Of a DNA stretch of 64,000 nt, positions 21,324-62,584 are shown one piece after another. The position numbers and the translations under genes were made by a program. Numbering within the stretch: position 1 is the first letter of the stretch; every line of letters begins with the position of its first letter. Source of the DNA: Pristiophorus japonicus (Eukaryota); the NCBI RefSeq assembly GCF_044704955.1, contig NC_091998.1, positions 12,338,001-12,402,000 on the forward strand. The letters are read 5' to 3'. The notes under the pieces were generated by a model that searched no databases, had not been told where the DNA came from, and saw nothing but the letters and a program-made list of their open reading frames with translations.

Positions 21324-21355
21324 ACAAGCGCAGTAACTGCAAGGCTCAGAAACTA

Positions 21356-35838: not shown

Positions 35839-35897
35839 ATAAATATCAGCCAGGACACTGGGGCAAACTGCCCTACTCTGCTTCGATATAGTGCCAT

Positions 35898-37029: not shown

Positions 37030-37650
37030 GAAGTTAGAGTTTTTAATAGTTTATAAGCAAGTACAGAGCCAAATAAAAGTTTGGGCAGGTAGGAACGAAC
37101 AAAAGGGAATGTTTGTGATAGCACGGAGAGCAGGTCTGATGAAATGACAAAAGGAATGATGGTTCAAGGCAAATGGGAATGGTAATGGCACAATAAAGAA
37201 ACAAAAGATGGGTCCAGAGGAGGTATAAATGCTTTCAGCAAAACAATTGCCTCATCTTTCAATTAGGCATTTTACAGTCTTCCGACCTCAACACTGAGTC
37301 CAACAACTTCAGATTATAACCACCCATTATCTGGGACAGCAGGTCCAGACTTGATGCGAATTAGGATACGGACAACAGAGATTTGGATGAACTCAAATTT
37401 ATGGGGAGTGGAAGATGAGAGGCTGGCCAGGAGAGTATTGGAATAGCCAAGTCAAGAAGTAACAAAGGCATGGGTGAGGGTTCCAGCAACAGAAGACCTG
37501 AGGGAGGGAAGCTGTCGGGCGATACGGAGATAAAATAGGCAGACCCGGTGAAGTGGTCGGAAGCTCACCTCGGGGTAAGAATTACCACCACGGTTGTGAA
37601 CTTCTGGTTCGGCCTCAGACAGTTGCCAGGGAGTTGGTGGCTAGGGAAAA
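37030..37650. mobile_element. Old Penelope-like fragment (+) followed by L2-like fragment (-); paralogous to 60670-61355
   Basis: cctcatctttcaattaggcattttacag...aacaacttc resembles a GIY-YIG C-terminus (LIFRLG.LQP.GLN.EFNNF). The adjacent segment encodes the L2-type HAFVTSRLDY motif. Confidence 0.6.
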
Positions 37651-38124
37651 GAGTGTGTGTCGGAGACGTAGTTATTTGCACGAGAGAAATGCTCTAATTG
37701 GGTCTCCGTGATCACATGACCTGATTGCTGATTGGAGGATAAGACACATCCAGCAGTTTCTCTGAAATGTGCAATTAGAACCGCCCAGCCCAAGTTCTCA
37801 GTGACTTTGTAAAGTGTAATTCGACCCATTATGACTACCGACTCCAGACAAAAGAGAGTTCTCCCCACTCTGCCCAAGTTCCTGCCCCATCCCAGCCGAT
37901 GTTCCTGCCTCATCCGAGCCCACGTTCCTCACTCCCCCAGCCCAAGTTCATGCCCCTTCCAGCCCCCCCAGCCCAAGTTCATGCCCCCCCCCCAGCACAA
38001 GTTACTGCCCCCCAGACCAAGTTCCTTCCCCCCCCAACCCAAGTTCATGTCTCCCAGCCCAAGTTCCTCCCCCCCCCCCAAATCTGAGTTAATTCCCCGC
38101 AGCCCAAGTTCCTACCCCATCCCA

Positions 38125-41100
38125 GCCGATCATGGCTGATTTGATCCGATCCTCAACTCTACTTCCCCACCCGCTCTCCATAACCCTTAACTCCCTTATC
38201 GTTTAAAAATCTGTCTATCTCCGCCTTAAATGCATTCAATAACCCAGCCTCTATAACTCTGAGGTTGAGAATTCCAAAGATTCACGACCCTCTGAGAGAA
38301 GAAATTTCTCCTCATTTTCATTTTGAATGGGCGATCCCTTATTCTTAAACTATGCCCCCTAGTTCCCTATTCCCCCTCTCTGCATCTACCCTGTCAAGCC
38401 CCCTCAGAATCTTATACATTTCAATAAGATCACCTCTCAGTCTGCTAAACCCCAATGAGTATAGGCCCAACCTGCTCAATCTTCATATGACAACCCCTTC
38501 ATCTCAGGAATCAACCTCGTGAACCTTCTCTGAACTGCCTCCAATGTAAGTATATCTTTCCTTAAATAAGAAAACCAAAACTGTATGCAGTACTCCAGAT
38601 GTGGTTTTACCAATGCCTTGTACAGTTGTAGCAGGACTTTCTTACTTTTATACTCAATCCCCTTTACAATAAAGACCAACATTCCATTTGCGTTCCTAAT
38701 TACTTGCTGTACCTGCATGCTAACTTTTTGTGTTTCATGTACAAGGACCCCCAGGTCTATCTGTACCACAGCATTTTGTAATCTCTCCCTATTTAAATAA
38801 TAATTTACTTTTTTATTTTTCCTACCAAAATGGATAACCTCACATTTTCCCACATTATACTCCATCTGCCAAATTTTTGTCAAGTCATTTAGCCTGTCTA
38901 TATTCCTTTGCAGATTCTTTGCTTTCCTCCTCAAAATTTGCTTTTCCACCTATCAGCAGCAAACTTGGCTACATTACACTCGGTGCCTTCATCCAAGTCA
39001 TTAATATAAATTGGTAATAGTTGAGGCCCCAGCACTGATTCCTGTGGCACCCCACTAGTTAGTTTGCCAACCTGAAAATGACCCCGACTCTTTGCTTTCT
39101 GTTAGTTAGCCAATCCTCTATCCACTTTAATATATTACCTCCAACCCCGAGAGCTCTTATCTTGTGCAGTAACCTTCTCTGTGGCTCGTTATCGAATGCT
39201 TTCTGGAAATCCAAATACACATCTACTGGTTCCCCTTCATCTATCCTGCTTACTACATCCACAAAAAGAATTTCAGTAAGTTTGTCAAACATTATTTCTC
39301 TTTCATAAACTCTGCTCGACTGCATTTTGATTTTCTGCTTCCTTAATGATGGACTCCAATATTTTCCCAATGACAGATGTTAGGCTAACTAGTATATAGT
39401 TTTCTGCTTTCTGTCTCCCTCCTTTCTTAAATACGGGCGTTACATTTGCGGTTTTCCAGTCCACTGGAACCTCTTCAGAATCCAGGGAATTCTGGTAGCT
39501 TATAACCAATGCATACACTATTCCTGCAACCACCTTTTTAAGAACCTAGGATGCAGGCCATCAGGTCCAGGGAACTTGTCCACCCTTAATCCCATTAGTT
39601 TGCCTCGTACTTTTTCTCCAGTGAAAGAGATTATTTTAAGTCCACCCTCCCCCCGCCCCTTAATTATTGATTATTGGGATGCTTTTAGTGTCTTCTACTG
39701 TGAAGACGATACAAAATATTTGCTCAAAGTCTCTGCCATTTCCCTGTTTCCCATTATTAATTCCCCAGGCTCATCCCCTAAGGGACCAATGTTTACTTTA
39801 GCTACTTGCTTCTTTTTTATATACCTGTAGAAGCTCTGACTGTTTTTTATATTTCTTATAATTTTCTCTCATAAGCTATTTTCTCTCCCTTTATAAATTT
39901 ATTTTAGTTGTCCTTTGCTGATTTCTAAAAATTTCCCAATCCACTGGTCTTTAGCTACTCTTCGCAACATTGTATGCCTTTGTTTTCAATTTGATACCAT
40001 CCTTTACTTCCTCAGTTAGCCACCGTTGGTTCATCCTTCTCTTAGATTCTTTCATTCTCACTGGAATATCTCTTTGCTGAGAAGTTATGAAATATTTTCC
40101 TAAATGTTTGCCACTGTTTTTCTACACTCTTACTCTTTAATATATTTTCCTAGCTTTCTCATCCTCAAACTGAATTTCAAATTCTAACATGCTATGATCA
40201 CTCTTCCCAAAAGGATATTTCACTATGAGATCATTAATTAATCCAGACTTGTTACACATTACCAGATTTAAAATAATCTGTTTCCTGGTTAGTTCCACAC
40301 AATTTGTTCCAAGAAATCATCCCGCATACACTCTATGAACTCTTCCTCAAGGCTACCTTTGCCAATTTGATTTGTCCACAATCAATATGAAGATTAAAAT
40401 CGCCCATAGAAACATAGAAAATAGGTGCATGAGTAGGCCATTCAGCCCTTCTAGCCTGCACCGCCATTCAATGAGTTCATGGCTGAACATGCAACTTCAG
40501 TACCCCATTCCTGCTTTCTCACCATGCCCCTTGATCCCCCGAGTAGTAAGGACTTCATCTAACTCCCTTTTGAATATATTTAGTGAATTGGCCTCAACTA
40601 CTTTCTGTGGTAGAGAATTCCACAGGTTCACCACTCTCTGGGTGAAGAAGTTTCTCCTCATCTCGGTCCTAAATGGCTTACCCCTTATCCTTAGACTGTG
40701 ACCCCTGGTTCTGGACTTCCCCAACATTGGGAACATTCTTCCTGCATCTAACCTGTCTAAACCCGTCAGAATTTTAAACGTTTCTATGAGGTCCCCTTTC
40801 ATTCTTCTGAACTTCAGTGAATACAAGCCCAGTTGATCCAGTCTTTCTTGATAGGTCAGTCCCACCATCCCGGGAATCAGTCTGTTGAATCTTCGCTGCA
40901 CTCCCTCAATAGCAAGAATGTCCTTCCTCAAGTTAGGAGACCAAAACTGTACATAATACTCCAGGTGTGGCCTCACCAAGGCCCTGTACAACTGTAGTAA
41001 CACCTCCCTGCCCCTGTACTCAAATCCCCTCGCTATGAAGGCCAAAATGCCATTTGCTTTCTTAACCGCCTGCTGTACCTGCATGCCAACCTTCAATGAC

Positions 41101-42372
41101 TGATGTACCATGACACCCAGGTCTCTTTGCACCTCCCCTTTTCCTAATCTGTCACCATTCAGATAATAGTCTGTCTCTCTGTTTTTACCCCCAAAGTGGA
41201 TAACCTCACATTTATCCACATTATACTTCATCTGCCACGCATTTGCCCACTCACCTAACCTATCCAAGTCACTCTGCAGCCTCATAGCATCCTCCTCGCA
41301 GCTCACACTGCCACCCAACTTAGTGTCATCCGCAAATTTGGAGATACTACATTTAATCCCCTCGTCTAAATCATTAATGTACAATGTAAACAGCTGGGGC
41401 CCCAGCACAGAACCTTGCGGTACCCCACTAGTCACTGCCTGCCATTCTGAAATGTATCCATTTACTCCTACTCTTTGCTTCCTGTCTGACAACCAGTTCT
41501 CAATCCACGTCAGCACACTACCCCCAATCCCATGTGCTTTAACTTTGCACATTAATCTCTTGTGTGGGACCTTGTCTGAAGTCTTCTGAAATTCCAAATA
41601 TACCACATCAACTGGTTCTCCCTTGTCCACTTTACTGGAAACATCCTCAAAAAATTCCAGAAGGTTTGTCAAGCATGATTTCCCTTTCACAAATCCATGC
41701 TGACTTGGACCTATCATGTCACCATTTTCCAAATGCACTGCTATGACATCCTTAATAATTGATTCCATCATTTTACCCACTACTGAGGTCAGGCTGACCG
41801 GTCTATAATTCCCTGTTTTCTCTCTCCCTCCCTTTTTTAAAAAGTGGGGTTACATTGGCTACCCTCCACTCGATAGGAACTGATCCAGAGTAATGGAATG
41901 TTGGAAAATGACTGTCAATGCATCCGCTATTTCCAAGGCCACCTCCTTAAGTACTCTGGGATGCAGTCCATCAGGCCCTGGGGATTTATCGGCCTTCAAT
42001 CCCATCAATTTCCCCAACACAATTTCCCGACTAATAAAGATTTCCCTCAGTTCCTCCTCCTTACTCGACCCTCTGACCCCTTTTATATCCGGAAGGTTGT
42101 TGGTGTCCTCCTTAGTGAATACCGAACCAAAGTACTTGTTCAATTGGTCTGCCATTTCTTTGTTCCCCGTTATGACTTCCCCTGATTCTGACTGCAGGGG
42201 ACCTACGTTTGTCTTTATTAACCTTTTTCTCTTTACATACCTATAGAAACTTTTGCAATCCGCCTTAATGTTCCCTGCAAGCTTCTTCTCGTACTCCATT
42301 TTCCCTGCCCTAATCAAACTCTTTGTCATATCTTTATTATTGCCATATCTTTCTTACAAGCCTCTATTATGA
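38125..42372 (-). mobile_element. Older CR1 LINE, interrupted by a young CR1
   Basis: Decayed RT/APE peptides at 38476-39533; the APE segment resumes after 42325 (IEACKKDMAII). Confidence 0.85.
40405..42325 (-). mobile_element. Young CR1 LINE, 5'-truncated
   Basis: ORFs 41859-42329 and 40497-41780. Confidence 0.95.
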
Positions 42373-43143: not shown

Positions 43144-46100
43144 TTAGGGGAGCTGTCCACAATCGGCGATGGTAACTTTTTTGCCGGGCGTGCCACTTTC
43201 ACTGCCGCATTTTTCCATCTTCTTTACAACTTCTTTGTACCCCTCCGTCACAGTTCCAAATACAACATGCTTTCCATCCAACCTGCAAGATTCAATAACA
43301 GATATGAATGACCACAGAATCGTGCTGTGAATACGTAGAGAGAGAATACTAAATCACCACTGACTTACCACGGAGTATCGCTAGTGCACAAAAAAAACTG
43401 GGATCCATTCGTATTTTTACCAGCATTGGCCATGGACAGGATACCTGCAACAGTAAGATGACTAAATGTAAACATTCCATAAATGTTTTTACAGGAGGTG
43501 TTTAGCTTCTCTCCTGTAGAACTTGCACTTAGATGGTGCCTTCGAGGTAATACAATGTTAAAATGCATTTCTGGGCCTGAGAGAAAGAACAGGGTGAGAC
43601 ACTGAGCACAAGTTGGTGGAAAAAGATTTGAGTGACGGTCAGCGAGGTAGGTTTGCAGGCAATTTTGAAAGTGGGTAGAAATACAACAGGGAGAAGGATT
43701 TTGAAATCAGTAAATCCAAGCAACAAAGTCCTCCACAGCCCCCTTATATTCTTCTCCCTTATTGCTAGCATAAAGGCTCAGGTTTGCTATAGGAAAAGAT
43801 TGGGGGTAAAATTCCAGTTAAAGGCTTCCTTCGGACGAACGCCTCCAACCCGAGAATTTTTTGCGAAAGTACCTGGTGGTCCCGGAGGCCTTCTCTTCCC
43901 GCGCATCAGAGAGCATCCACGTCTTGGAAGTTCGGACGCAGAAGCTGGAGCTGGAGAAGCTGGAGTCACGTGGGCCTAGACAACCACAGTACAGTATTCT
44001 CACTGATAAAATGGGAACTCCGTAACTCCGAGTTCCCACTACTATCAATGAGAAGGACCCTCTAATACATCCAAACACAACATAATAAATTTTTAAAAAA
44101 ATTAAAGTTAATTAAATGTTTTAGAAAAATAAATTTGCGGGTGAAGGGGGAATGTTTTTTTTAAATGTGTTTTAGTCGGGTTTTAAATTAACTTACCTTA
44201 GTGGACAGGACCTCCACTTTAAAAATGTGATTAAATTTTATTTTTGTGTGTTTTTTAAAACTCTTACACTGGTAAAAGTAGGCTATGCACCTGCTTTTAC
44301 CAGGCGTAAAAGTTTTAAGGACATTCGCTGGGCAAGAAATGGCCAAATAGCCCAATCTCGCCTGCGCGCATGTCCTTTTCCCGGGGATGCGGAAGATCTG
44401 TCAAGCGAAACTTAGACAGATGGGAAAAGCCGCTTTTCGGTGTATGGACATGCGCGCCGAAAACCAGCTTTTGTGAGACCTCACCGGTTCCGTACACACT
44501 CCCTATGGACATGGCGAGACCGGGATGTTACAGCCACTAAGTTTAACAATTGCTTTTATTTGCTAATCATAAATCAGGTTGATGAATATTTTCACTGTAT
44601 TACCATACCAGCACTTACAGAAGAACATAAGAACATAAGAATTAGGAACAGGAGGAGGCCATCTAGTCCCTCGAGCCTGCTCCGCCATTCAACAAGATCA
44701 TGGCTGATCTGGCCGTGAACTCAGCTCCACTTACCCGTCCGCTCCCCATAACCCTTAATTCCCTTATTGATTAAAAATCTATCTATCTGTGACTTGAATA
44801 CATTCAATGAGCTAGCCTCAACTGCTTCCTTGGGCAGAGAATTCCACAGATTCACAACCCTCTGGGAGAAGAAATTCCTTCTCAACTCGGTTTTAAATTG
44901 GCTCCCCTGTATTTTGAGGCTGTGCCCCCTAGTTTTAGTCTCCCCGACCAGTGGAAACAACCTCTCTGCCTGGATCTTGTCTATCCCTTTCATTATTTTA
45001 AATGTTTCTGTAAGATCACCCCTCATCCTTCTGAACTCCAACGAGTAAAGACCCAGTCTGCTCAATCTATCATCATAAGGTAACCCCCTCATCTCCGGAA
45101 TCAGCCTAGTGAATCGTCTCTGTACCCCCTCCAAAGCTAGTATATCCTTCCTTAAGTAAGGGGACCAAAACTTCTCATGTAGACACCCACTAAATTCATA
45201 ACTAATCCCCAATACGGGTACAACTTCGAGAATCTGGAGTTCCGGAATCCGTACTGTTCTGGAATCAGGACACCGGAATGATCTGTGGTGGGGGTTGTCC
45301 AGAATCCGAAAAATGTTCCAGAATCCGGACTCCCACCTCGGGCCACTGCGGACCTCACCCAGACCTCAAGCTGCCGCAGACCTGCTCCCGCCTCGGGCCA
45401 ACCTCCCCTCCCCTATCTACCTACCTACCTACCTAGGCCCAGGCGTTTCCGGATTTGGGACATCGGAAAGACGTTCCGAAGTCCGGAAATACACAAACCT
45501 GGGCTTGGGCGTTTCCGGCTTTGGGACGTCATAATGACGTTCCGAAGTCCGGAAATACACAGAATCCGGAGCAGCCTCGGACCCGAGGCTTCCGCATTCT
45601 CGACATTGTACTCACAGGCAAGTCTGAGGTCTACAGCACTGTTGTGACGTTTAGCCAAGATGGAGTTGTGTTTAAAAACGACAAACCGTTTAAGGCCATG
45701 ACTCAGGTACTTGTTAACAGTCAGAATATCACAGAATCATAGAATGGTTACAGCACAGAAGGAGGCCATTCGGCCCGTCGAACCCGTGCCAGCTCTCTGC
45801 AAGAGCACTTCAGCCAGTCCCACTCCCCCACCCTTTCCCCGTAGCCCTGCAAATCTTTTTCCTTCAGGTATTTATCCAACTCCCTTTTGAAAGCCATGAT
45901 TGAGTCTGCCTCCACCACCCTTTCAGGCCGCACATTCCAGAGTCTAACCACTCAAGGCATAAAAAAAAATTTTCTTATGTCGTTTTGGTTCTTTTGCCAA
46001 TCACCTTACATCCAGATATAAAAGGGGTCAGAGGGTCTAGTAAGGAGGAGGAACTGAGGGAAATCTTTATTAGTCGGGAAATTGTGTTGGGGAAATTGAT

Positions 46101-49100
46101 GGGATTGAAGGCCAATAAATCCCCAGGGCCTGATGAACTGCATCCCAGAGTACTTAAGGAGGTGGCCTTGGAAATAGCAGATGCATTGACAGTCATTTTC
46201 CAACATTCCATTGACTCTGGATCAGTTCCTATCGAGTGGAGGGTAGCCAATGTAACCCCACTTTTTAAAAAAGGAGGGAGAGAGAAAACAGGAAATTATA
46301 GACCGGTCAGCCTGACATCGGTAGTGGGTAAAATGATGGAATCAATTATTAAGCATATCATAGAATGCATTTGGAAAGAGGTGACATGATAGGTCCAAGT
46401 CAGCATGGATTTGTGAAAGGGAAATCATGCTTGACAAATCTTCTATAATTTTTTGAGGATGTTTCCAGTAGAGTGGACAAGGGAGAACCAGATGATGTGG
46501 TATATTTGGACTTTCAGAAGGCTTTCGACAAGTTCCCAGACAAGAGATTAATGTGCAAAGTTAAAGCACATGGGATTGGGGGTAGTGTGCTGACATGGAT
46601 TGAGAACTGGTTGTCAGACAGGAAGCAAAGAGTAGGAGTAAATGGGGACTTTTCAGAATGGCAAGCGGTGACTAGTGGGGTACCGCAAGGTTCTGTGCTG
46701 GGGCCCCAGCTGTTTACACTGTACATTAATGATTTAGACGAGGGGATTAAATGTATCTCCAGATTTGCGGATGACACTAAGTTAGGTGGCAGTGTGAGCT
46801 GCGAGGAGGATGCTATGAGGCTGCAGAGCGACTTGGATAGGTTAGGTGAGTGGGCAAATGCATGGCAGATGAAGTATAATGTGGATAAATGTGAGGTTAT
46901 CCACTTTGGTCGTAAAAACAGAGAGACAGACTATTATCTGAATGGTGACAGATTAGGAAACGGGGAGGTGCAACGAGACCTGGGAATCATGGTACATCAG
47001 TCGTTGAAGGTTGGCATGCAGGTACAGCAGGCGGTTAAGAAAGCAAATGGCATGTTGGCCTTCATAGCGAGGGGATTTGAGTACAGGGGCAGGAAGGTGT
47101 TGCTACAGTTGTACAGGGCCTTGGTGAGGCCACACCTGGAGTATTGTGTACAGTTTTGGTCTCCTAACTTGAGGAAAGACATTCTTGCTATTGAGGGAGT
47201 GCAGCGAAGGTTCACCAGACTGATTCCCGGATTGGTGGGACTGATCTATCAAGAAAGACTGGATCAACTGGGCTTGTATTCACTGGAGTTCAGAAGAATG
47301 AGAGGGGACCTCATAGAAACGTTTAAAATTCTGACGGGTTTAGACAGGTTAGATGCAGGAAGAATGTTCCCAATGTTGGGGAAGTCCAGAACCAGGGGTC
47401 ACAGTCTAAGGATAAGGGGTAAGCTATTTAGGACCGAGACGAGGAGAAACCTCTTCACCCAGAGAGTGGTGAACCTGTGGAATTCTCTACCACAGAAAGT
47501 TGTTGAGGCCAATTCACTAAATATATTCAAAAGAGAGTTAGATGAAGTCCTTACTATTAGGGGGATCAAGGGGTATGACGAGAAAGCAGGAATGGGGTAC
47601 TGAAGTTGCATGTTCAGCCATGAACTCATTGAATGGCGGTGCAGGCTAGAAGGGCCGAATGGCCTACTCCTGCACCTATTTTCTATGTTTCTATGTATCC
47701 TCTCATTCTCGACTCCTCTGCCAATGTGAACAGTTTTGCTGCCCAGACCCCAAGTTATGAAGTCACAATTGCCATTTCTGTAGATTGTCTGGCTCACACC
47801 CCTGGGGAGAGGCCAGGTAATGACAGCGATGAATGCCAGCAGAAAGCAGCTCTTTCTCCCGCCCCCACCCCATTTTTTAATAAAAGAGTACAGTTGAAGC
47901 GTGGTACCTCAAGTATGATCAATGCAGCTCATCCAAGACTTGTGCAAACCTGAAAGGTCCCAAGACATGGATATATTGGTCAGCTACACCTTAAAGCAAC
48001 ATTAGCCCAGTTAAGACTGGTCATATTTTCAGAAATTGTAATGAACAGATGGTGCCGTTCAAAAATATAGCGAATGTAGTCAGGACTCAAAATTGAAAGT
48101 AACAATTTGATTAGCAGAATTATTCATACAGAAATAAACAGTTGCCTATATATGGCACCTTGTCAGAAATGTCTCAAAAGCTATGACTTTTGCTTCAATA
48201 TAATTTATTTGGGATTCTCCACAAGATGCAAATTTTATTTAAAAAAAAGTAATGTACATTTAATATACATGAACAGTGAGTGGTGTGAGAATTGCAAACG
48301 GTTCTGCTCGTGATTGTCACATTAAATGACTAATTAAGGACCTGCAACATTTGTAACATTGTGTGACAGACCCAAACTGCACCTTCAGTAATCCCCAGGT
48401 ACTCTTTCTCGACAAGACACACAATTGCAGTCACCCAGGAGTCCGCCCACAATGAGCATCACTGAGCCGATTGAACCTCTTCTGGTTTCCCCCCCACCCC
48501 GTCCCTCCCCGACCCCTTCCTTCACCCCAACGATCTCAACTCCCTCCCACCTCCTCCATTCCTCCCACCCCCCGCCCCTGAAAATTAATGCAAATATGGC
48601 CGCACGGATTTACCTTTGCATTTGTGTGTCAGTTTGAAGTTCTCATCCTCAAACTTCTCACCGTAGATGGACTTTCCACCTGTGCCATTGTGATTTGTGA
48701 AGTCACCACCCTGTACAATTGAAAGTGGAACATGTCATTAGTCGCTTACAAGCACAGAGACATTCCAACTATTCGCAAAATAAAGTTGCTCCTCACCTGG
48801 CACATGAAGCCAGGAATGATTCTGTGGAATGTGGAGCCATTGTATCCAAAACCCTTCTCACCGGTGCACAATGCACGAAAGTTTTCTGCAACAAAGCCAT
48901 TCAGAGTAAGACCAGACATCGATACAACTGAGACTTTCTTCAGCTCAACAGTCAGTTCCTGGGACTTACCTGCAGTCTTTGGGACCACATCAGCCCTGAG
49001 CTGAAAGAGACAACAGTGCACAGCTTCAGTATATCGACCATGTACAATAATAAAACACTACAGATTTACAGCCGTAATCACGGTTCAAACATTATATTGA

Positions 49101-51306
49101 GAAGATTTGTAAAAGCTAATCACAATCACATATGAACAAGTTTTATACAGACCAACGGTAACAACGGTAACTGCTGCTGGACTTGGATGCAATTATTTTA
49201 CCATTTACCTGATCATTAAGCATCTAACAGTGATTCTTAAACTTGTGTGGGGAAATTCCTGTAATTCCCAACATACTCCCGGGGTCCCTTACTAATATTG
49301 TCTGGGGAACCCTCATTTCACAAAGACAATGCCAGCGAGTCAATGGAAACCAGTGGTATCATTGCAGGAATTACTGGGATTTTTTGTAGTTGTAAACACA
49401 TTGGGGAAAGAGGGAGAAAAGAGCGAAAAGGAGAAGCCCAAACTTACGGCTACCCTCTGCCCCCCGTCTTGGCACCGGCCCAAAGTCCTATCATGGAACT
49501 TGTTACCTCATGAGTAGCAACCCCAACTGCCCCATCAGACGCTCTCACCAATCATTGATTCCTGGTCCCTATGCCAGCTGACATTATAAGTGGTTCCTTC
49601 TCTTCAGGTTCTGTTCGTGGAAAGTTAAAGTGTTAAAAATCTGAGTCCCAACCGGAACCTGCCCACTTCCGATTTTAATGGAGGTAGAACGGGGCGCACA
49701 GCCAACCTGCTCCCAGGAGACGGGTCGCCCATTTAAATTTAATGAGGCTGGAAGCCTCTGATTTAACTTCAGCTGGTCGGGTTTTGCAGGCCTCGTGAAA
49801 TTTTACACTTACCTCCTGGATCCAGCATCCGTGCCTAACTCCACCCCCCACTAATGTTGCGTTAGTGAGTTTATTTACATAGGATATACGGCACGGAAAT
49901 AGTACATTCAGCCCGTCCAGTCCATGCTGGCGTTTATGTTCCACTCGAGCCTCCCGTCTTTCCTCATCTAAATCTATCAGCATAACCCTCTACTCGCTTC
50001 CCGCTCATGTACTTATCTAGCCTCCGCTAAAATGCATTTATACTTCAACCACTCCCTGTGGTAGCGAGTTCTACATTCTCACCACTCTGGGTAAAGAAGC
50101 TTCTTCCGAATTCCCCATTGAATTTCTTGGCGACTAACTTATATTGATGGTCTCTATTTATGCTCTTCCCCATAAGTGGAAACATACTCTCTGTATCCAC
50201 TTTATCAAAACTTTTCATCATTTTTAAGACCTCTATTAGGTCGCCCCTCAGCCTTCTCTTTTAAAGCAAAAAGAGACCCAGCCTGTTCACCCTTTCCTGA
50301 CAGGTATAACCTTCCATTTCTGGTATCATCCTTGTAAATCTTCTCTACACCCACTCCAGTGCCTCTATATCATTCGTAGAATATGACGACAATGTCTGTA
50401 CACAGTACTCCAAGCATGGTCCGACTCGTGTTGCATTCCTACTGTTAGTTTTGAACCCAGTTTTGCAGCGGCTCCACACATTCCAGATGCTCCACACCCA
50501 GTGGCTGTTGCTCTGCACAGGCCTGCACCTGAGCCCCGCCCCGCACCCCTCCCAGCGACGCGTGATCTCGGGAACTGCTCCCCCAGCGGCCGGCCCGCGG
50601 AGAGGTATTAGGCGGTCCCTCGTGTCGTGGATGACCCACTTCCACACCAAAAAGGGATGAGTTCACCGGTGTTTCAATGGGGGAACCTGACATTCCGAGC
50701 TCCGAACTACATATTGAAGGGATGAGTTCACCGGTGTTTCAATGGGGGAACCTGACATTCCGAGCTCCGAACTACATATTGAAGGGCGGAAGATGCCTGT
50801 GTGTGGATTTTTTAACGTGGGATGGCTGTTGCACACCAGCCACCACACGGGCTTGACAGAGCTAGGTCTTGGTCCAGTGGCAAGGGTTAACCAGGACAAC
50901 TGGAGACCAGGCTGTGCTGCATGGACCTGGAGCACACACATACTCCGACTATCCATAGATCTCAGAATGGGCTGGCCCGTGCTGCTAGTCTAAAAGGCTT
51001 GTGATTAAATCCAATTGGCAACAGCAGCAATATCATCATCTTCCTCTGAAAAAAAAGATCAATACTCATCAGTGGCTGTTGGAACCAGTCAAACTACTCC
51101 AATCCCAGGCCACTGAAATAGGAGACAAACGGTATCACCATGCAGCAAAATAGGACCTTTAGAGAGTAATTTCTTAGTAAATTGGACATTGCGAGCACTA
51201 TCATTCACTGACTCCTGGAAGCGCAACTCACCGTCATCACGATCCGGCCCAGACTTTTGCCGTCTATATCGATGTCCATGAAAACCCGGGGATTGTTAGC
51301 AGCCAT
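43144..51306 (-). CDS. Cyclophilin-type peptidyl-prolyl cis-trans isomerase, copy 3 (complete, 168 aa)
   Basis: Exons complement(51232-51306, 48970-49000, 48797-48885, 48614-48710, 43369-43444, 43144-43282) = 75/31/89/97/76/139 nt, GT-AG, open frame. [168 protein letters not shown]. Confidence 0.96.
43801..44537. mobile_element. Non-autonomous DNA transposon (Harbinger-like MITE) in copy 3 intron 4
   Basis: Imperfect TIRs ggggtaaaattcc / gggatgttacagcc; absent at the homologous site in copies 1 and 2. Confidence 0.6.
44622..45172 (-). mobile_element. CR1 3' fragment (different subfamily, ttcttatg tail)
   Basis: ORF 44721-45212 RT C-terminus. Confidence 0.9.
45221..45608. mobile_element. Tc1/mariner-pogo-type MITE
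   Basis: TA at both ends (45219-20 and 45609-10), TIRs caacttcgagaatc / cattctcgacattg, internal tccgga repeats; empty site in copy 2. Confidence 0.7.
46010..47695 (+). mobile_element. Young CR1 LINE in copy 3 intron 4
   Basis: ORFs 45985-46389 and 46473-47603; tail. Confidence 0.94.
50610..50990 (-). mobile_element. Short RTE-related element (RTE 5' region) containing an exact 65-bp tandem duplication (50652-50786)
   Basis: Reverse-complement similarity to the RTE 5' region at ~51990-52140. Confidence 0.6.
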
Positions 51307-51344
51307 CGCGCAGGGTTTGCGGAGATGCCGAGCTCAGTGTGTTC

Positions 51345-51842
51345 GAATAGCGCTGGTGGCTCTGGCGGGGAACTCGCTCCGAAATTGGCTCCAAGTGGTG
51401 TTACCTGCCAATCACACGGAGGACGGGGTCACGCTCCCCATTGGCTGTCAATCTCATAGAGGGCGGCGCTATCATCATGCACTGATCAGCACAATGCCTT
51501 CTGTTTTTGTTTGAGAGTCCCATGTGGCGACTTGTGTCTGCAACTCACCAAACCTTATAAAAAGAAATACTTGCATTTATATAGCGCCTTTCATGACCAC
51601 CAGGCGTCCTAATGCGCTTTAGAGTCAATGCAGTCACTGTTGTAATGTGGGAAACGCGGCAGCCAACTTGTGCACAGCAAGCTCCCACAAACAGCAACAC
51701 GATAACAACTCGATCATTTGTTTTTGTGATGTTGATTGAGGTATAAATATCAGCTAAGACACTGGGGAGTACTCCCTTACTCTGCTTCGATACAGTGCCA
51801 CAGGATCATTTATGTTTACCTGAGAGGACTAAACCTTTATGA
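51345..51842 (-). promoter_or_regulatory. Copy 3 proximal promoter (2 modules plus SINE tail); left copy of ~500-bp direct repeat
   Basis: Homologous to the copy 1 and 2 promoters. Modules at ~51405 and ~51445; the CTTAAG element is degraded to ctccaag. Confidence 0.7.
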
Positions 51843-54800
51843 GAGAGAGAATCATTGCCTCAGATATCTTATTCTCACTCGCTACATCTTGGATTCTCAC
51901 CATCTCTCCTAAAGGCACTGTTTAGTGCCAAGCTTACAGTTTACATCTCACCATATGCAACTAGGCCCATACAGCAGAGCCTAGTATCCAGTCGTCTTGG
52001 ATCCCCTTGACATTGGACCAAGACCTTGCTCTGCCAAACCCGTGTGGTGGCTGGTGTGCAACGACTAGCCCACATTAAAAGAATTCATCAACAGGCATCT
52101 TCCACCCTTCAAAATGAAGTTTGGGACCTGGAACATCAGGACCCTCATTGAAAACCCCAACAGCCACAGACTGGAACGTCGCACTGCTATCGTTGCCCGG
52201 GCACACAGATGTTTCGATGTAGACATCGTCGCCCTAAGCAAGACCCGGCGGGCAGGGGAAGGCCAGCTCAAAGAATAAGGTAGTGGTTACACCTCCTTAA
52301 TAGGAACATAAGAAATAGGAACACGAGTAGGCCATATGGCCCCTCAAGCCTGCTCCGCCATTCAATAAGATCATGGCTGATCTGATCATGGACTCAGCTC
52401 CACTTCCCTGCCCGCTCCCCATAACCCCTTATCTCCTTATCGTTTAAGAAACTATCTATTTCTGTCTTAAATTTATTCAATGACCCAGCTTCCACAGCTC
52501 TCTGAGGCAGTGAATTCCACAGATTTACAACCTTCGGAGACAAGAAATTTCTCTTCATCTCCGTTTTACATGAGCGGCCCCTTATTCTAAGATCATGCCC
52601 TCTTGTTCTAGTCTCCCCCATCAGTGGAAAATCCTTTCTGCATCCACCTTGTCAAGCCCTCTCATAATCTTATACGTTTCGATAAGATCACCTCTCATTC
52701 TTCTGAATTCCAATGACGAGAGACCCAATCTACTCAACCTTTCCTCATAAGTCAACCCCCTGATCAGGAAGGCCAATGGAATCAACCTAGTGAACCTTCT
52801 CTGAACTGCCTCCAAAGCAAGTATATCCTTCCTTAAATATGGAAACCAAAACTACACGCATTATTCCAGGTGTGGCCTCACCAATACCTTGTATAGTTGT
52901 AGCAAGACTTCCCTACTTCCCTACAAGATTCCATTGGCCTTCCTGATCACTTGCTGTACCTGTATACTAACCTTTTGTGTTTCATGCACAAGTACCCCCA
53001 GGTCCCGCTGTACTGTGGCACTTTGCAATCTTTCTTGCTCTTTGATTTTTTTCTGCCAAACTGCATGACCTCACACTTTCCATCTTCCAAATTTTTGCCC
53101 AGTCACTTAGCCTGTCTGGAAAGGCAAACCAGAAGAAGAACACCGCTCCATGGGGTAGGCTTCGCCGTAAAAAATGAGCTAGTGGGCCGTCTCAGAGACT
53201 CCCCTTGCGGGATAAATGAATGCCTCATGACTCTTTGGCTCACCTTAGCCCAGAACCAGTGCACTACAGTCATCAGCACGTATGCCCCAACACTGGAAGC
53301 TACAGATGGCACCAAAGAGGAATTCTACTCCAGTCTCGAACAATCCCTGTCCCGAGTTCCAATGGGCGACAAGCTGATCCTCCTCGGCAACTTCAACGCC
53401 AGAGTTGGAAAGGACACAGACCTCTGGGGAGTTGTGATCGGCAGAAAGGGGCTAGGGAAATCCAAATCCAGCGGTAGCCTGGTCCTGACAAAATGCCGAG
53501 AACATGGCCTTGTCATCACCAAGGCCTTGTTCCATCAGAGAGACAAGTACAAGGCTTCATGGCAACACCCTCGCTCCAAGAACTGGCATCTGCTCGACTA
53601 CATTCATTGTCTGAGCGAGGGACCACAAGGACGTGCGCATCACCCGCACCTTGACAGGAGCTGACGACTGCTGGATGGTTTAATCCACTCTGTCATCAAC
53701 ATCACAGCAGTGATGATAACAGAAACAATACCGCAGGAAAATCAACGCTGGGGCACTCAAAGACCCTAATAAGAAAGCCCTATTCAACCAGCATCTCACT
53801 GCCGTCCTGACAACTCCCAGTGACCCAGAGATGCAGAATGTCCACAGTGCCTGGTCTGCCCTCAAGGCCTCCATAATTAGTGCCTGCGAAGAGATACTCG
53901 GTCACTCGTCCAGGAAACACCAAGACTGGTTCGACAAGAACGACCAGGAGATCCAGGAGCTAATAAACCACAAGCGCAAGGCATTTCTGAACTTGAAACA
54001 GCAACCCAACTCGAGAGCAAAACAACAGCTCTACAGACAGCTGAAGGCCGACGTCCAACAAAAAAACCCATGACGTAAAGAACAGATGGTGGGTGGGGAA
54101 AGTGCAGGAGATCCAGCAGTTAGCTGACAACCATGACGTGTGAGGATTCTTCAGCGCAGTCAAGACCACCTACGGCTCAAGCACCCAAGGCCCTACTCCA
54201 CTGCTGGCCAAGAATGGAGAAGTACTCATCAAGGACAGAGGCAATCAGTGCCCGTTGGAAAGAGCACTTCGAAGATCTCCTTAACCGAGACTCTGTTCTC
54301 AACGCGAGTGTCCATGACTCCATCCTACAGCATGCTACCCGCCACCATCTGAGCAAAACCCCAGACCAGCACGAGGTAGAAAAGGCCATCCAACAGCTGA
54401 AGAACAACAAGGCATCAGGAGCAGATGGAATCTCCGCCAAAGCACTAAATCATGGCGGAGAAGCACTACTAGCATGAATACATGACCTAATTTCTCTTAT
54501 CTGGAAGGAGGAGAGCATGCCAGGAGATCTGAGAGATGCCGTAATCGTGACCAGCTTCAAGAAAGGAGACAAGTCCGATTGCGGTAATTACAGAGGAGTT
54601 TCCCTGCTGTCGGCCACAGGGAAAGTCATTGCAAGAATCCTCCTCAATCGTCTTCTCCCTGTGGCTAATGAGCTCCTCCCAGAGTTGCAATGCAGATTCC
54701 GCCCACTAAGGGACACAACAGACGTGATATTCACCACGCGGCAATTACAAGAGAAATGCAGGGAACAGCACCAACCCTTTTACATGGCCTTCTTTGACCT

Positions 54801-57800
54801 CACTAAGACCTTTGACACTGTCAACCATGAGGGATTATGGAGCGTCCTCCTCCGTTTCGGCTGCCCTCAAAAGTTTGTCACCATTTTTACTCATTGGTGT
54901 TCAGAAGAATGAGAGGTGATCTTATCGAAACATAAAAGATAATGAGGGGGCTCAACAAGGTGGATGCAGAGAAGATATTTTAACTCATAGTGGAAACTAA
55001 AACTCAGGGGCATAGTCTCAGAATAAGGGGCCGCCCATTTAAAACTTTAATGAGGAGAAATATCTTCTCTCAGAGGGTTATAAATCTGTGGAATTCTCTG
55101 CCCCAGAGAGCTGGGGAGGCTGGTTTATTGAATATATTTAAGGCGGAGATAAAGAGATTTTTGAGTGATAAGGGAATAAAGGGTTATGGGGAGCAGGCAG
55201 GGAAGTGGAGCCGAGTCCATGATCAGATCAGCCATGATCTTATTAAATAGCGGAGCAGGGTCGAGGGGCCAAATGGCCTACTCCTGCTCCTATTTCTTAT
55301 GTTCTTATGTTCATCCTCCACCTGCTCCACGATGACATGCAAGCCGTGATCCTGACCAACGCATCCACCACAGACCCAATTCATGTCCAGACCAGGGTTA
55401 AGCAAGGCTGTGTCATCGCACCAACGCTCTTCTCGATCTTCCTTGCTGCAATGCTACGTCTCACCCTCAGCCAGCTCCCCGCTGGAGTGGAGCTAAATTA
55501 TAGAACAAATGGGAATCTGTTCAACCTCTGCTGCCTCCAGGCCAGATCCAAGGTTGTCCCATTCTCTGTCATTGAACTACAGTTCGCCGATGACACTTGC
55601 ATCTGTGCACACTCGGAGGCCGAACTCCAAGCCATCGTCAACACCTTCACCGAGGCGTACGAGAGTATGACCCTTACACTAAACATCCGCAGGTCAAAGA
55701 TCCTCTACCAACCTGACCCTACTATACAGCACTGCCCCCCAGGTTATCAAAATCCACGACGAGGCCTTGGACAACGTGGATCATTTTCCATACCTCGGGA
55801 GCCTACTTCAACAAGGGTAGACATCGACGACGACGTCCAACACTGCCTTCAGTGTGCCAGTGCAGCCTTCGGTTGCCTGAGGAAGAGAGTGTTTGAAGAC
55901 CAGGACCTCAAACCCGGCATCAAGCTTATGGCCTACAGGGCAATAGTGATACCCACCCTCCTATATGGCTCAGAGGCGTGGACAGTGTACAGCAGACACC
56001 TCAAAGTGCTGGAAGTACCACCAACGCTGTCTCCGCAAGATCTTGCAAATCCACTGGCAGGATAGGCGCACCAACGTCAGTTTTCTCGCTCAGGCCAACA
56101 TCCCCAGCATCGAAGCACTGATCACACTCGACCAGCTCCGTTGGGCGGGCCACATCATCCGCATGCCAGACACGAGACTCCCAAAGCAAGCGCTCTACTC
56201 GGAGCTTCAACACATCAAACGAGCCCCAGGTGGGCAGAGGAAACGCTTCACGGACACCCTCAAAGCCTCCTTGAAAAGTGCAACATCCTCACCGACACCT
56301 GGGAATCGCTGGCCCAAGACTGCCCAGAGTAGAAAAAGAGCATCCGGGAAGGCGCTGAGCACCTCAAGTCTTGTCGCTGAGAGCCTGCAGAAAGCAAGCG
56401 CAGACAGCGGAAGGAGCTTATGGCAAACCAGGCTCCCCACCCACCCTTTCCTCCAACCTTTATGTCTTCAGATGCTCTGATAATGACACCACGAGACAAT
56501 GTGTTGTGCTTGAACTGTAGTGACCTTAGTTCATTTAATGTAACTCCAGAGTGAGGATCACACATCGTGGCCTGCCTTTTATACTAGGCCTGGCACACCT
56601 GTACAGGTAACCTACAAGTCTCCCACTGCAGTGCCCTCTGGTGGCACACCTTGTAATAGTACAAGCAGTAACCATGTAGGATACATGACATCACTCTCCC
56701 CAAGTCCTTAGTGCAAATCGCCTTTGCATTGACTGTGCTCTGGGCTTAACTCTATCTGGTTGACCCTTGGAGGGTCGTTTCCATCTGGTGTTTCGTTGGT
56801 AGTAGAGGTGCTGGTGATTTCTGTTTGTGCGTCCATGACCACTCCATTCTCTCCCCCCCACCCCCTCTCCTCCCCCCAACCCCCCACGTACAGATTGTGC
56901 CATTGGCTCATTATATTCAAATACATTCAAGTCCAAAAAATAATTTGCATTTACAGTATTACATTCGTGGTACCGTAGAGAGGCAAGTACATTTGAATGA
57001 TGAGGTACATACTTGGAATATACTTGAAATCAGTGCTGGGGTCAGCACCGGTACGTGAGGACAAACTAGTGCCAGAACTGCTGGATGGTGTCCAGGTCGT
57101 CTGGTGGTGGTGTGGTGCCCAATGCTGGCAGTGGGAACCCAGTTGGCTCAAGTTGCCTGCTCTTAGGACTTTTGCCGTTGCTCCTAGCGTCGGGCAGGTT
57201 CACAGATGCCTGTGACCTCCCTGTCCTCTCCTTGCGCCCCGGGTCGCTGCTGCTCCCTGAGGAGCAGTCATCTAGCAGTGCGCAGTGAACTGCTGACTCG
57301 CTTGCCTGGGCGTTCTTTGGTTTGGAGTCCTAGCTGGTCCCAGTCCCATTTGGGAGAACCGTTGCGGGTGACCCTTCGTTCCCGGGTGTGGCCTTGGTGG
57401 CGATGGGGTCTGGGGGCTGCGCCTTAGCGCGGTTTGCTCTTTCAGGCTCATGGCGGTTGGTGCCATCGGGTGCTTGAGAGGTGGAGCCGATTGAGGACAT
57501 GGTATCGATACCGGTGCTGTTGCTCTCCTGAGATCGCTTGCTCTGCAGCTTGTATATATTATTTGCATGTGGCCACACTCCATGGTGCATCACTCTGGTC
57601 CCAGGGACACAGGCCACAGCATTGGGTAGCTCGCTGGATCTGTGTGCTCCCGATGGGTGTTTGCCCGTTGTATTGACTATATGCAGTTGAAATCCTACAT
57701 TGCACAATGCTTCATTACTCATTGTAAATAACCTGTAGCTCCGATCGCAATCGCGCGACTTTTCCTTGCTTATTGCATGTACACAACTCTGATCATCAAT

Positions 57801-59919
57801 TACACATTTTACATCTAACTCACAGTTGCTATTGCATTGATTGAGAGTGTGGAACTGTCCCTTTAAGTGTGTTGAGTTGCTGGCCTCCTATAAGAGAGTC
57901 TTGCTATCTTTACCCCAATCCTCTTCTTCGCTTGGTGCCACGTGATGCTCCATCAGCGCTGCAGGTGATGGTCTGGCCACTGCCATCTTTTTCTTCAGCG
58001 CCTCACCTCGTGGTTTGGGTGCCATCTTTCTTCCATCTATGATGTCGACTGATTGATCCTCTTCTCCTCGGGTTCTGCCACCGAGGCTGGGAAGTCACCT
58101 CTGGATCCGATTTTCTTCCTCCGGAGTCCTGCCACTGGAGCCCGGAAGGTGCGGTCGGGTCATCTCAGCTGGATCACCTCCACGCAGTCGTGCTGAGCGG
58201 TCTGTGCCTCCGTGCTGTGCTGGCCTGCTCTCCGGTGCCGGATCCAACCTTAGGTGAGGGCTTGTTTTGCCTCTGAGCGCGGAGGACATCGATAGCTGGA
58301 GGGATTAAATCTTCTCAGCTCCAATGGATCTTCTCCATCCACCTTCTTCCGAATAGCGTTGGTCCATCACTTGCAACAATCCACAAGGGTAACTTGTGCA
58401 CCGCGCCATCATGGAGTACCTTTACATCCGCACTACCAATGACTGGGATAAGTTCATTGGTATAGGTGCGCAGCTTTGCCTGAACCGGGAGCGACTTCGG
58501 TCGTTCAGCCTGATTGTCCCATAGCCTCTCAAAGGCTTCTTGATTCATTACTGACTGGCTCTCCCCAGTGTCCACTTCCACGAAGACTGGAACACCATTT
58601 ATCTCGACTTCCATCCTCAACGGTGAACATTCGGTGGTGCAGGTAAACATGCCATATACCTCATCGTGGGGCTGAGCTGCATCTCTGACTATCGCTTTAT
58701 AATCCACGCTGGATTCATGGCCAACTGCAGATTCTTCATCAACACAATGAGTCATATTTCTTTTATATATTCGCTGGCCCTTTGTGCTGCAGCCTTTATA
58801 CACAGTCTTTCAAATGGCACTGGTGAGCCCTGTGATTCCCTCCGCAACGGCAGCATGGTGCTACTCGATTAGCCCCCCTCGGCGTTAAGCGACTCGGAGG
58901 CCTGTTCTCTCTCCCCTGAGAAGATTCATTTTCTACAGTCCAGCCTCTAAAAGGCGCCATTCTGTGCACAGTAGTTGCCGGGTTCGAGTCCTGAGGATGA
59001 GTCATCCGCCTAGAGCCGCAGGTCGAGGTCATGAATGCCTGGCTCACGGAGATGGCCTTCTGCAGTGTGACTGTGGTATCCGCAGATAGTAGCTTATGAA
59101 GAAGGCCCTCATGGCTGATTCCGATGACAAAGATATCCCGCAGCGCTTCGGTGAGCTGGTCGCTGAAATCACACGGTGCCGCCAGCCTCCTGAGGTCTGC
59201 AGCATATTTTGTGATTTCCTGGTCTTTGGGCCATCGGTGGGTATAAAACTGGTGTCTGGGCTGTGAGGATGCTCTCTTTGGGCTTGAGTTGTTCTTGGAT
59301 CAGAATTACAAGCTCCTCGTATGTCTTGGTTGTTGTCTTCGCTGGTGCCAGCAAGTCCCTACCGAGGCCATAGACGGTGGACCCACAACTGGTTAGCAGG
59401 AGAGCTCTGCGCTTATCAGCCAGTGTGGCCGGGTTATCGCCTGCCAGGTTGATTGCTGTGAAGAAATGGTCGAGCCTCTCCACAAAGGCATCTCAATCAT
59501 CACCATCGACAAACTGCTGCAACGTACCAAAGTTAGCCATTTTCGCGTGTAGGACTGTAATCTCGTCGCCAATTGTTATGTCTTCAGATGCTCTGATAAT
59601 GACTCCACAAGACAATGTGTTGTGCTTGAACTGTAGTGACCTTAGTCCATTTAATGTAACTCCAGAGTGAGGATTACTCATGGTGGCCTGCTTTTTATAC
59701 AGGTAACCTACAAGACTCCCACTGCAGTGCCCTCTGGTGGTACAGCTTGTAATAGTACAAGCAGTAACCATGTAGGATACATGACACCAACCTCTGTCTG
59801 CCCCACCTGTGGCAGAGACTGGAGGACCCGCATAGGACTGACTCATCAGTCACATGAGAACTCATTTTTGGTTTGGAATCAAGTGAACCACGAATCTGAA
59901 GAACTGCCTAAGAAGAAGA
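51843..59919 (+). mobile_element. Near full-length degenerate RTE LINE with nested CR1s (52303-53105 minus; 54886-55308 plus) and an LTR element
   Basis: 5'UTR, APE (GTWNIRTL, GVGFAV, LILLGNFNARVG), RT (FDLTKTFDTV, VKQGCVIAP, FADD), 3' tail ctgcctaagaagaag. Confidence 0.92.
56458..59786 (-). mobile_element. Non-autonomous Ty3/Gypsy LTR retrotransposon (gag + protease only)
   Basis: LTRs 56458-56690 and 59574-59786; 5-bp TSD ccaac; PBS TGGCGACGAG; PPT GGGGAGAGTGA; gag (ERLDHFF..., CCRCGGNHRAHQC knuckle); aspartic protease VDTG. No RT, RNase H or integrase seen. Confidence 0.9.
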
Positions 59920-60441
59920 GAACAGTGGTGGCTCTGAGGGGAAGTCGCTCCGAAAGCGGGGTGGGGCTGGGCAGAGACTTAAGTAGTGTTACCTGTCAAT
60001 CACATGGAGGGCGGAGCCACGCTCCCCATTGGCTGTCAATCAGGCGGAGGACGGGGCTATAGTCCTCACTGGCTGTCAATCACAGAGACAGGGGGGCTAT
60101 AATCATGGACTGATTCAGCACAATGTGGTGACTTGTGCCTATAGCTCGCCAACCTTATAAAAAGAAATATTTGCATTTATATAGCGCCTTCATGAGCACC
60201 GGACGTCCCAAAGCGCTTTACAGTCAATGCAGTCACTGTTGTAATGTGGAAAATGCGGCAGCCAACTTGAGCACAGCAAGCTCCCACAAACAGCAACACG
60301 ATAACAACTAGGTAATCTGTTTTTGTGATGTTGATTGAGGTATAAATATCAGCCAGGACACTGGGGAGAACTGCCCTACTCTGCTTTGATATAGTGCCAT
60401 GGGATCGTTTATATTCTCCTGAGAGGGCTAAATGTTTATGA
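59920..60441 (-). repeat. Distal duplicate of the copy 3 promoter (3 modules, CTTAAG retained); right copy of ~500-bp direct repeat
   Basis: Colinear with 51345-51842. Starts immediately after the RTE 3' tail, with no exon 1 adjacent. Confidence 0.85.
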
Positions 60442-60669
60442 AACACAAGTTAGGCTTCAGCTGGAGTATTGTTTTCAATTCTGGGCACCACACTTTAAGC
60501 AGGATTTTCAGGCTTTAACAAAGATGCAGACTTCAGTTACATGGAGAGACTGGAGAAGCTGGGGTTGTTCTTAGAGCAGAAAAGGTCAAGAGGCGATTTG
60601 ATGGAGGCGTTCAAAATCATGAACTGTTTTAAGGACAAACTGTTTCCAGTTCTATGAAGTTAGAGTTTT

Positions 60670-61355
60670 TAATAGTTTATAAGCAAGTACAGAGCCAGGT
60701 AAAAGATTGGCTGGGTAGGAACGAAAAAAAGGGAATGTTTGTGATAGCACGGAGGGCAGGCGTGATTAAATGGCAAAAGGAATGATGACGCAAGACAAAT
60801 GGGGATAGTAATGGCACAATAAAGAAACAAAAGATCAATCCAGAGGAGGTGTAAATGTTTACAGCAAAACCATTACCTCATCTTTCAATTAGGCATTTTA
60901 CAGTCTTCCGACCTCAACACTGAGTCCAACAACTTCAGATTATAACCACCGTGCCCATTATCTGGGACAGCATAGAAACATAGAAAACAGGTGCAGGAGC
61001 AGGCCATTCAGCCCTTCTAGCCTGCACCGCCATTCAATGAGTTCATGGCTGAACATGAAACATGCAGGTCCAGACTTGATACGAATTAGGATACGGACAA
61101 GAGAGATTTGGATGAACTCAAGTTTATGGGGAGTGGAAGATGGGAGGCTGGCCAGAAGAATATTGGAATAGTCAAGTCTAGAAGTAACAAAGGCATGGGT
61201 GAGGGCTCCAGCTGCAGATGAGCTGAGGGAGGGACGCAGTCGGGCGATACGGAGATAAAATAGGTGGACCCAGTGAAGTGGTCGGAAGCTCACCTCGGGG
61301 TAAGAATTACCACCACGGTTGTGAATGTCTGGTTCGGCCTCAGACAGTTGTCAGG
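60670..61355. mobile_element. Penelope-like and L2-like fragments with a short CR1 tail (60971-61060)
   Basis: Paralog of 37030-37650; RLRPSLSSSAAGALTHAFVTSRLDYSN peptide. Confidence 0.6.
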
Positions 61356-61984
61356 GAGTTTGTGTCGGAGATATAGTTATTTGCACTAGAGAAATGCTCT
61401 AATTGGGTCTCTATGATCACATGACCTGATTGCTGATTGGGGGATAAGACACACCCAGCAGTTTCGCTGAAATGTGTAATTAGAACCGCCCAGCCCCATT
61501 TCTCAGTGACTTTGTAAAGTGTAATTCGACCCATTATGACTACCGACTCTAGACAGGAGAGCTCACCCCACTCTGCCCAAGTTCTTGATCCTCCCAGCCC
61601 AAGTTTCAAGTTTTTGAACCCCCCCCCCCAGCCCAAGTTCCCGCCCCATCCCAGCCTGACCTTACCTCTTCCCCCACCACACCATAGCTGGGGCATTTTG
61701 TGTGGGTCACGGATTGTTAACAGGCTTATTAGGTTTGAAGTGAATAGTGACAGTCGTGCCTTTCGGATTTCATTCACTCCAATGATGTCCCTTGTAACAC
61801 ATGCACCAAGCGTTCTAAGAAATTGGGTATGGGTGTAAAGGGGGTTGGAAAAACGTGATCCGTCTTCCCTGAGTTCCCTATCTCCGCTCCGATCCCTTCT
61901 CCCTCATCCCCTCTCTCTCCCCCAGTGCATCTCACTCTCCCCCCAGACTCTCTGTCTCAGTCTCTCTCACTCCAGCCTTCTTCC

Positions 61985-62330
61985 CCCCCGTCTCTCTTTC
62001 TCCCCCCCCCCCCGTCTCTTTCTCCCCCCCCCCCGTCTCTTTCTCCCCCCCCCCCCCCGTCTCTTTCTCCTCCCCCCCCCCCCCCCCGTCTCTTTCTCCC
62101 CCCCCCCCCGTCTCTTTCTCCCCCCCCCCCCCCCGTCTCTTTCTCCCCCCCCCCCCCCCCGTCTCTTTCTCCTCCCCCCCCCCCCCCCGTCTCTTTCTCC
62201 TCCCCCCCCCCCCCCGTCTCTTTCTCCTCCCCCCCCCGTCTCTTTCTCCTCCCCCCCCCCCCCGTCTCTTTCTCCTCCCCCCCCCCCCCGTCTCTTTCTC
62301 CCCCCCCCCCCCCCCGTCTCTTTCTCCCCC
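61985..62330. repeat. Low-complexity tandem repeat (CGTCTCTTTCTC + poly-C)n; G-quadruplex-prone on the minus strand
   Basis: Repeated ~20-30-bp units with variable C-run length, in a polypyrimidine tract from ~61860 to 62455. Confidence 0.92.
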
Positions 62331-62584
62331 AGTCTCTCTCACTCTCCTTCCAGCCTCTCTTCCCTCCCACCCCCACTCTCTCTCTCTCCCCCCCAGTCTC
62401 TCTCTCTCCCCCACCCCCTCAGTCTCTCTCTCTCTCTCTCTCTCTCCCACCTCCGATGTTTTCTCTCCCACAGAAGGCCGTGAAAATGTTTGTACAGATA
62501 ATCACAGCGATATTCTCGGCAAAAGTCCTGAAGATAATCCTAAAGCTAGACACACGCGGCAGAGCTCCTCATGATACAGGCCCT

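Follow-up and report, generated by a model that had tools for sequence, protein, structure and literature searches.

The analysed window, a stretch of 64 kb of DNA, carries three six-exon cyclophilin genes (Pfam Pro_isomerase) in tandem on the minus strand, spaced 17-25 kb apart. The first exon lies at 8961-9036 in copy 1, at 34284-34359 in copy 2 and at 51231-51306 in copy 3, whose coding sequence starts with the ATG at 51306 and runs through six exons, all open, to 43147; two of the copy 3 exons match Pro_isomerase. The frames of copies 2 and 3 are open across the 161 codons compared, where 18 codon differences are silent and 26 replacing, and their introns differ at 293 of 2277 positions (12.9%). 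A relic of a further cyclophilin paralog was found at 15795-20700, where pieces of the introns are present and the exons are absent. The divergence of these pieces is 12.5-15.7% when they are compared with copy 3, and 18% for copy 2. The introns of copies 1 and 2 (5484-8830 and 28991-33953) are just 3-7% apart, and the distance of each to copy 3 is 10-15%; this patchwork suggests that duplication or conversion took place recently. Intron 1 of copy 1 lacks 937 bp, and the loss starts exactly at the tail of an RTE-type element that is common to copies 1 and 2 (8687-8690 compared with 32876-33813), so that an RTE tail can come to adjoin a new neighbour.

The promoters of copies 1 and 2 (9164-9454 and 34479-34811) are arrays of a 38-40-bp unit with a GC box and a CCAAT box. 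Each contains six CCAAT boxes, together with seven and nine GC boxes, respectively; such boxes are much scarcer in copy 3. Intron 1 of copy 2 holds about four tandem GC-rich units of 67 bp (33939-34255), with fewer in copy 1. Upstream of copy 1, repeats of about 340 bp bound a tandem block (10606-13917), which measures about 1470 bp and shows 92% likeness. Young CR1 copies, 93-96% alike, lie at 23468-26020, 17514-20317, 40497-42353 and 46011-47695, one of them with an open frame of 850 codons. A minus-strand element at 50652-50928 is 80% like the 5' UTR and ORF start of the LINE described below and terminates in an exact 65-bp tandem duplication; it is possibly a short non-autonomous relative.

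Upstream of copy 3, a direct repeat was found on both sides of the LINE. The left repeat L (51347-51842) is still joined to copy 3 and the right repeat R lies at 59920-60441. The two are collinear, with 57 differences in 463 aligned columns (12.3 +/- 1.5%) and 10 gaps (BLAST E 1e-121), which confirms the moderately diverged flanking repeats described in an earlier note on this DNA; outside CpG they differ at 44 of 419 positions (10.5%). The same note had taken the whole repeat for a copy of the cyclophilin promoter. This holds for about 205 bp of promoter-like sequence, and the remainder consists of about 280 bp of a SINE and 14 bp of an old CR1 element. In L, the promoter-like part (51347-51550, minus strand) has three CCAAT boxes, one GC box and a CpG observed/expected ratio of 0.65, and its position and motifs suggest a promoter function. 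It is followed by the SINE (51551-51828, minus strand) and by the first 14 bases of the CR1 (51829-51842, plus strand). The SINE is a high-copy element, which has a further copy at 16291-16535 and a very high depth in all four contig runs. R starts at the point corresponding to about 41 bp upstream of the copy 3 ATG and contains an orphan promoter-like part (59920-60150, one CCAAT box, CpG observed/expected 0.45), the SINE (60151-60427) and the CR1 start (60428-60441). The CpG counts of L and R, 10 and 8, are a weak contrast. Contigs of organism D reach a depth of 417 at 60051, a spot in R that matches the promoter arrays of copies 1 and 2.

The flank beyond R (60442-61605, plus strand) contains the remaining old CR1 and further sequence. 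Translation of R and this flank gave a motif 42% identical to the young CR1 copies (E 6e-13). L ends four codons into the motif, which carries on beyond R, and the end of L was thus formerly continuous with an R-type flank. An Rfam search over 50500-61700 returned 0 matches, and a search for tRNA genes found none.

The LINE fills the gap end to end (51843-59919, plus strand), as the earlier note had stated: its 5' part starts where L stops, and its (AAG)n tail at 59910-59919 reaches up to R. The last letter of the tail TAAGAAGAAGA is at 59919, directly in front of R. Both junctions are crossed with 0 differences by contigs of run X1 (51721-52021 and 59840-60188), which is possibly the window's own source. 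The insert of 8.1 kb consists of 3.5 kb of LINE and 4.6 kb of younger nested elements, without which the LINE has a net length of 3498 bp. It is full-length and decayed, with an ORF from 52114. In a collinear tblastn comparison, the frame aligned end to end, with about ten frameshifts, to 24 proteins of 900-1200 amino acids that were picked from 52 matches and mostly have endonuclease and reverse transcriptase domains. The closest named relative of the LINE protein is from a shark (74% over 136 amino acids), which suggests that the DNA comes from a cartilaginous fish. The LINE gave RVT_1 matches in Pfam, and the Pfam search with the endonuclease piece itself gave no match. A single frame with an AP endonuclease followed by a reverse transcriptase is the architecture of the RTE clade, to which we provisionally assign the element on this architecture. 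Its size and simple-repeat end also fit the clade (3.3-3.9 kb, short 3' UTR), as described in the available part of PMC1291365. A contig of organism C (run X9) spans 51849-51921 at a depth of 322. As this repeated contig begins at 51849, that position was taken as the 5' end of the LINE family, within about 6 bp of the end of L; the 5' end would lie there if the linkage of this one contig to the ORF is assumed. A scan of metagenomes for the tail motif yielded 2 loci, each matching over 23 bp only, and was of no use for a survey of the family.

Three elements are nested in the LINE. Two are 3' fragments of CR1, at 52294-53116 (minus strand) and 54887-55311 (plus strand), the latter being joined across by family contigs in all four runs. 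The third is an LTR retrotransposon at 56460-59789 (minus strand), with LTRs at 56460-56693 and 59576-59789 and a duplication of 5-6 bp. It shows a weak aspartyl-protease match under the cut-off of Pfam and is presumably Gypsy-like. It is abundant in organism A, and its interior is nearly without depth in organisms C, D and F. The two LTRs differ at 13 of 216 positions and are younger (p = 0.014), as is required if the element landed in the LINE later.

The kinship of L and R was then judged from informative sites. In the promoter-like part, 17 of 159 sites grouped L with R against copies 1 and 2, and the other two groupings had one site each. Over the first ~200 bp of the SINE, where copy 2 and an outgroup SINE were compared, 10 of 170 sites again grouped L with R (1 and 1 for the other groupings). 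In addition, L and R have in common a derived 16-bp deletion in the SINE, which is found neither in copy 2 nor in the family contigs. Over the first 400 bp, these sites make L and R sisters relative to the promoters of the other paralogs. A grouping of R with another paralog's promoter, which the earlier note had named as speaking against its idea, was not observed: over this stretch R groups with L rather than with copy 1 or copy 2.

By part, L and R differ at 27 of 172 promoter-like positions; in the SINE, the earlier stretch has 14 differences in 199 positions and the last part 16 of 92. The excess in the last 92 bp has a permutation p of 0.049 within the SINE and of 0.49 over the whole repeat. 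In this last part, derived sites common to L and R number 0 of 75, R is nearer to copy 2 than to L, and the sites that differ in the outgroup only rise to 16 of 75. The extra divergence and the absence of common derived sites in these 92 bp call for a later exchange with copy 2.

Copy 2 served as the comparator, as its promoter, SINE and flank are found at 34392-37903 without the LINE. Its SINE is interrupted at two places, once by a CR1 and once by an insert of 750 bp that has an 8-bp duplication. The 750-bp insert (35094-35846) resembles, in reverse orientation, the flank sequence at 61439-62440. The earlier note had let copy 2 define the empty site. Indeed, the sequence after R matches the flank of copy 2, with 43 differences in 523 and 41 in 542 positions (84/1065, 7.9%), and the layout of copy 2 is ancestral. 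However, this distance is younger than the L-R split (p = 0.007). Since the flank of copy 2 is nearer to the flank of R than L is to R, copy 2 is not an independent empty site. In the simplest reading, the distal SINE and flank of copy 2 were later overwritten from the lineage of R, a direction that a few sites suggest. Contigs of three related organisms (X9, X12 and X15; 80% likeness) were also inspected. Among the 15 of 4294 joints and the 33 pieces listed, none spans either junction or the empty site, which is no evidence of absence. Joints from near 51600 to 60201 occurred in all four runs and were rejected as an empty site, because their short side measures at most 29 letters and lies inside the SINE; they were read as family contigs that switch between the two SINE copies.

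The age of the LINE was estimated from its decay. At columns conserved in the 24 relatives, 12 of 82, 23 of 150 and 31 of 191 residues are changed at three thresholds, where the medians of a leave-one-out background are 1.2, 2.6 and 3.9%. The frame has 5 in-frame stops in 1005 codons (6 were counted, one of them beyond a frameshift). In a neutral simulation, this corresponds to a base change of about 6% since insertion, with a range of about 4-8%. The LINE is 19-26% diverged from five other RTE-type copies in the window, and these pairwise distances give its own branch a length of 7-10%, an upper bound. A decay of about 6% per lineage leads to an expected distance of about 12% (8-15%) between two copies born at the insertion. 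The comparison of these ages, which had been proposed in the earlier note, therefore gave 12.3% observed between L and R and about 12% predicted from the LINE, and the repeats are not older than the LINE.

Taken together, the best reading of the locus is that the promoter and the SINE were duplicated as a giant target-site duplication when the LINE inserted, and we consider this probable. The proposal of the earlier note, that staggered nicks or repair during target-primed reverse transcription duplicated the promoter, agrees with the geometry, the kinship and the age, and it has to share the field with one rival. R could have belonged, as its promoter, to a fourth tandem paralog that was the sister of copy 3. 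Everything from the copy 3 flank through the 5' UTR of that gene would then have been lost by a target-site deletion at the insertion, by a later deletion starting at the LINE tail, or through recombination of two LINEs with the same direction. The divergence of L and R equals that of the introns of copies 2 and 3 (12.9%; p = 0.82), so the age match does not exclude a sister paralog. The array does lose genes, as the relic at about 15.8-20.7 kb demonstrates with its 12.5-15.7% distance to copy 3, and the tail of an RTE borders the 937-bp loss in copy 1. At LINE junctions, deletions of up to 50 kb have been described for Ku70-null cells in the available part of PMC2666801. Moreover, the giant duplication needs the later exchange with copy 2 for the last 92 bp, and the two other RTE duplications that could be read in the window measure 11-12 bp. 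On the other hand, the loss of a paralog requires a gene of which nothing is seen, together with a deletion nearly as long as a whole repeat unit. Both ends of this deletion must lie no more than 500 bp from one homologous point, a coincidence that a rough estimate puts at a few percent. It also does not predict that the age of the LINE matches the L-R distance. Between 51843 and the end of the window no exon trace of a fourth gene is left, the search for exon-like remnants having returned a single 24-bp match on the opposite strand (E 0.04). We regard the deleted paralog as a serious but unlikely explanation; this grading and that of the giant duplication rest on rough priors and were not computed.

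A second rival places a tandem duplication of 500 bp first and lets the LINE insert later at its junction, with a duplication of 5-6 bp. It would draw on the best exact match across the LINE ends, the 6 bp AGAGAA at 51846-51851 and 59917-59922. However, the tail junction was matched equally well by 629 of 5000 random 30-mers from the window (12.6%), and at this chance level the purine match does not provide a competing short duplication. A conventional short duplication at the LINE ends, which the earlier note had counted against its own reading, was thus not seen. Furthermore, the repeated X9 contig begins within the AGAGAA match, at 51849, RTE duplications are mostly of 7-15 bp according to the part of PMC6007223 available, and an insertion exactly at the junction base is unlikely. 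This order of events appears highly improbable. An assembly artefact or a chance likeness of two SINE copies is largely refuted: a high-copy SINE accounts for more than half of the repeat, but the non-SINE part aligns as well (27/172 different), L and R have the derived 16-bp deletion in common, exact contigs span both junctions and a divergence of 12% is unlike a collapsed or duplicated haplotype.

The other RTE-type copies of the window were inspected for their flanks. The earlier note had ascribed duplications of about 9-12 bp to them. Two insertions, at 14704-15422 and at ~32210-32876, do have duplications of 11-12 bp, and for the second the empty site is visible in copy 3 and in a relic; three further copies, ending at 4936, 8687 and 21324, have no readable one. 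Long flanking repeats were not found at any of these five RTE-type 3' ends in the window. The five copies are 19-26% diverged from the focal LINE and 5'-truncated or cut by the window, and this makes them a weak test of the habit of the family. After the copy at 20738-21324 come 9 bases that resemble the beginning of the R flank. This copy was rejected as the same insertion because it differs from the focal LINE at 127 of 549 positions (23%), and the 9-base likeness was put down to chance.

For the giant target-site duplication, a single insertion event would yield both the LINE copy and the repeat. The LINE endonuclease would have placed a nick in the bottom strand, about 41 bp upstream of the copy 3 start codon, and reverse transcription would have been primed at the nick by the GA-rich target against the AAG tail. 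The top strand would then have been resolved about 495 bp farther upstream, via a distant nick or by repair synthesis, leaving promoter, SINE and 14 bp of CR1 on either side of the LINE. A distant nick and break-induced replication fit the sequence equally well. Afterwards, the two CR1 pieces and the LTR element would have landed in the LINE, R would have decayed and the distal SINE and flank of copy 2 would have been overwritten. The gene-side copy contains the whole proximal promoter, so the copy 3 gene kept its promoter. An ordinary duplication of 10 bp would place 3.5 kb between the gene and its promoter, and selection may therefore explain why the long one survived. The "regulatory duplication" advanced in the earlier note is not demonstrated: no gene lies behind R, which retains one of the three CCAAT boxes of L. 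If R fires, its transcripts would run antisense through the LINE and in sense through the LTR element. In regulatory terms, the gain seems to be a rescue of the host gene's promoter and not a new working promoter.

Long duplications are an established outcome of LINE insertion (PMC5223499; PMC2666801, both available in part). In cultured cells, engineered human L1 was found between long direct repeats of the target of 100 bp to more than 5 kb, and at most 10% of the HeLa insertions had duplications longer than 100 bp, as did most insertions in repair-deficient cells (PMC5223499). The authors proposed a distant second nick and pointed out that functional regions, for example exons, might be copied in this way and that recombination between the repeats is conceivable. 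Our locus likewise has a LINE flanked by long direct repeats of target DNA. Those insertions arose anew in HeLa or repair-deficient cells, whereas the present one is old, apparently fixed in the germline and of RTE type. In wild-type DT40 cells, one of the 25 insertions of the zebrafish element ZfL2-2 had a duplication of 1228 bp (PMC2666801); this element is also a non-L1 LINE with a long duplication, but belongs to the L2 clade and was studied in cell culture. In tumours and clones, L1-linked small tandem duplications of 1-10 kb have been interpreted as large target-site duplications made via break-induced replication (bioRxiv 10.1101/2024.12.14.628481, excerpts). Their geometry fits our locus equally well, but they are somatic and are outnumbered by L1-linked deletions.

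Nearly all duplications at inherited L1 insertions are below 30 bp (PMC4805530, in the part available), and those of the RTE clade are mostly of 7-15 bp (PMC6007223, PMC13295347, PMC1291365, PMC2887409, likewise). The focal LINE resembles the RTE-clade elements in its single endonuclease-reverse transcriptase frame, its length of about 3.3-3.9 kb and its short simple-repeat tail, but its flanking repeat is about 40 times longer. As far as the text of two RTE surveys was available, they considered perfect repeats of 10-49 bp within about 200 bases of flank (PMC6007223, PMC13295347), so cases like L and R would be undetectable there. No inherited vertebrate RTE case with a long duplication was met in the literature searched, mostly outside the subscription journals. 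The Rte-1 element of C. elegans (Youngman et al. 1996) is reportedly an RTE with flanking repeats of hundreds of bases. In our literature search, which included the available text of PMC11662393, no passage on these long repeats was found.

A fixed germline example would be unusual, although its mechanism would not be new. With one locus and one remaining rival, the model of LINE insertion is unchanged. It is tempting, but doubtful at present, to suppose that full-length copies of this RTE family fairly often make germline duplications of hundreds of bases that surveys capped at 49 bp miss, and that selection keeps them at start sites, where the promoter is handed back to the gene and the orphan promoter points antisense into the LINE. 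The locus suggests a cheap genome-wide test, namely a search for long diverged direct repeats in the flanks of RTE elements. If the giant target-site duplication is true, it would add a case, both old and fixed, from a different LINE clade, and would mean that a long duplication reaches the germline and can persist there.
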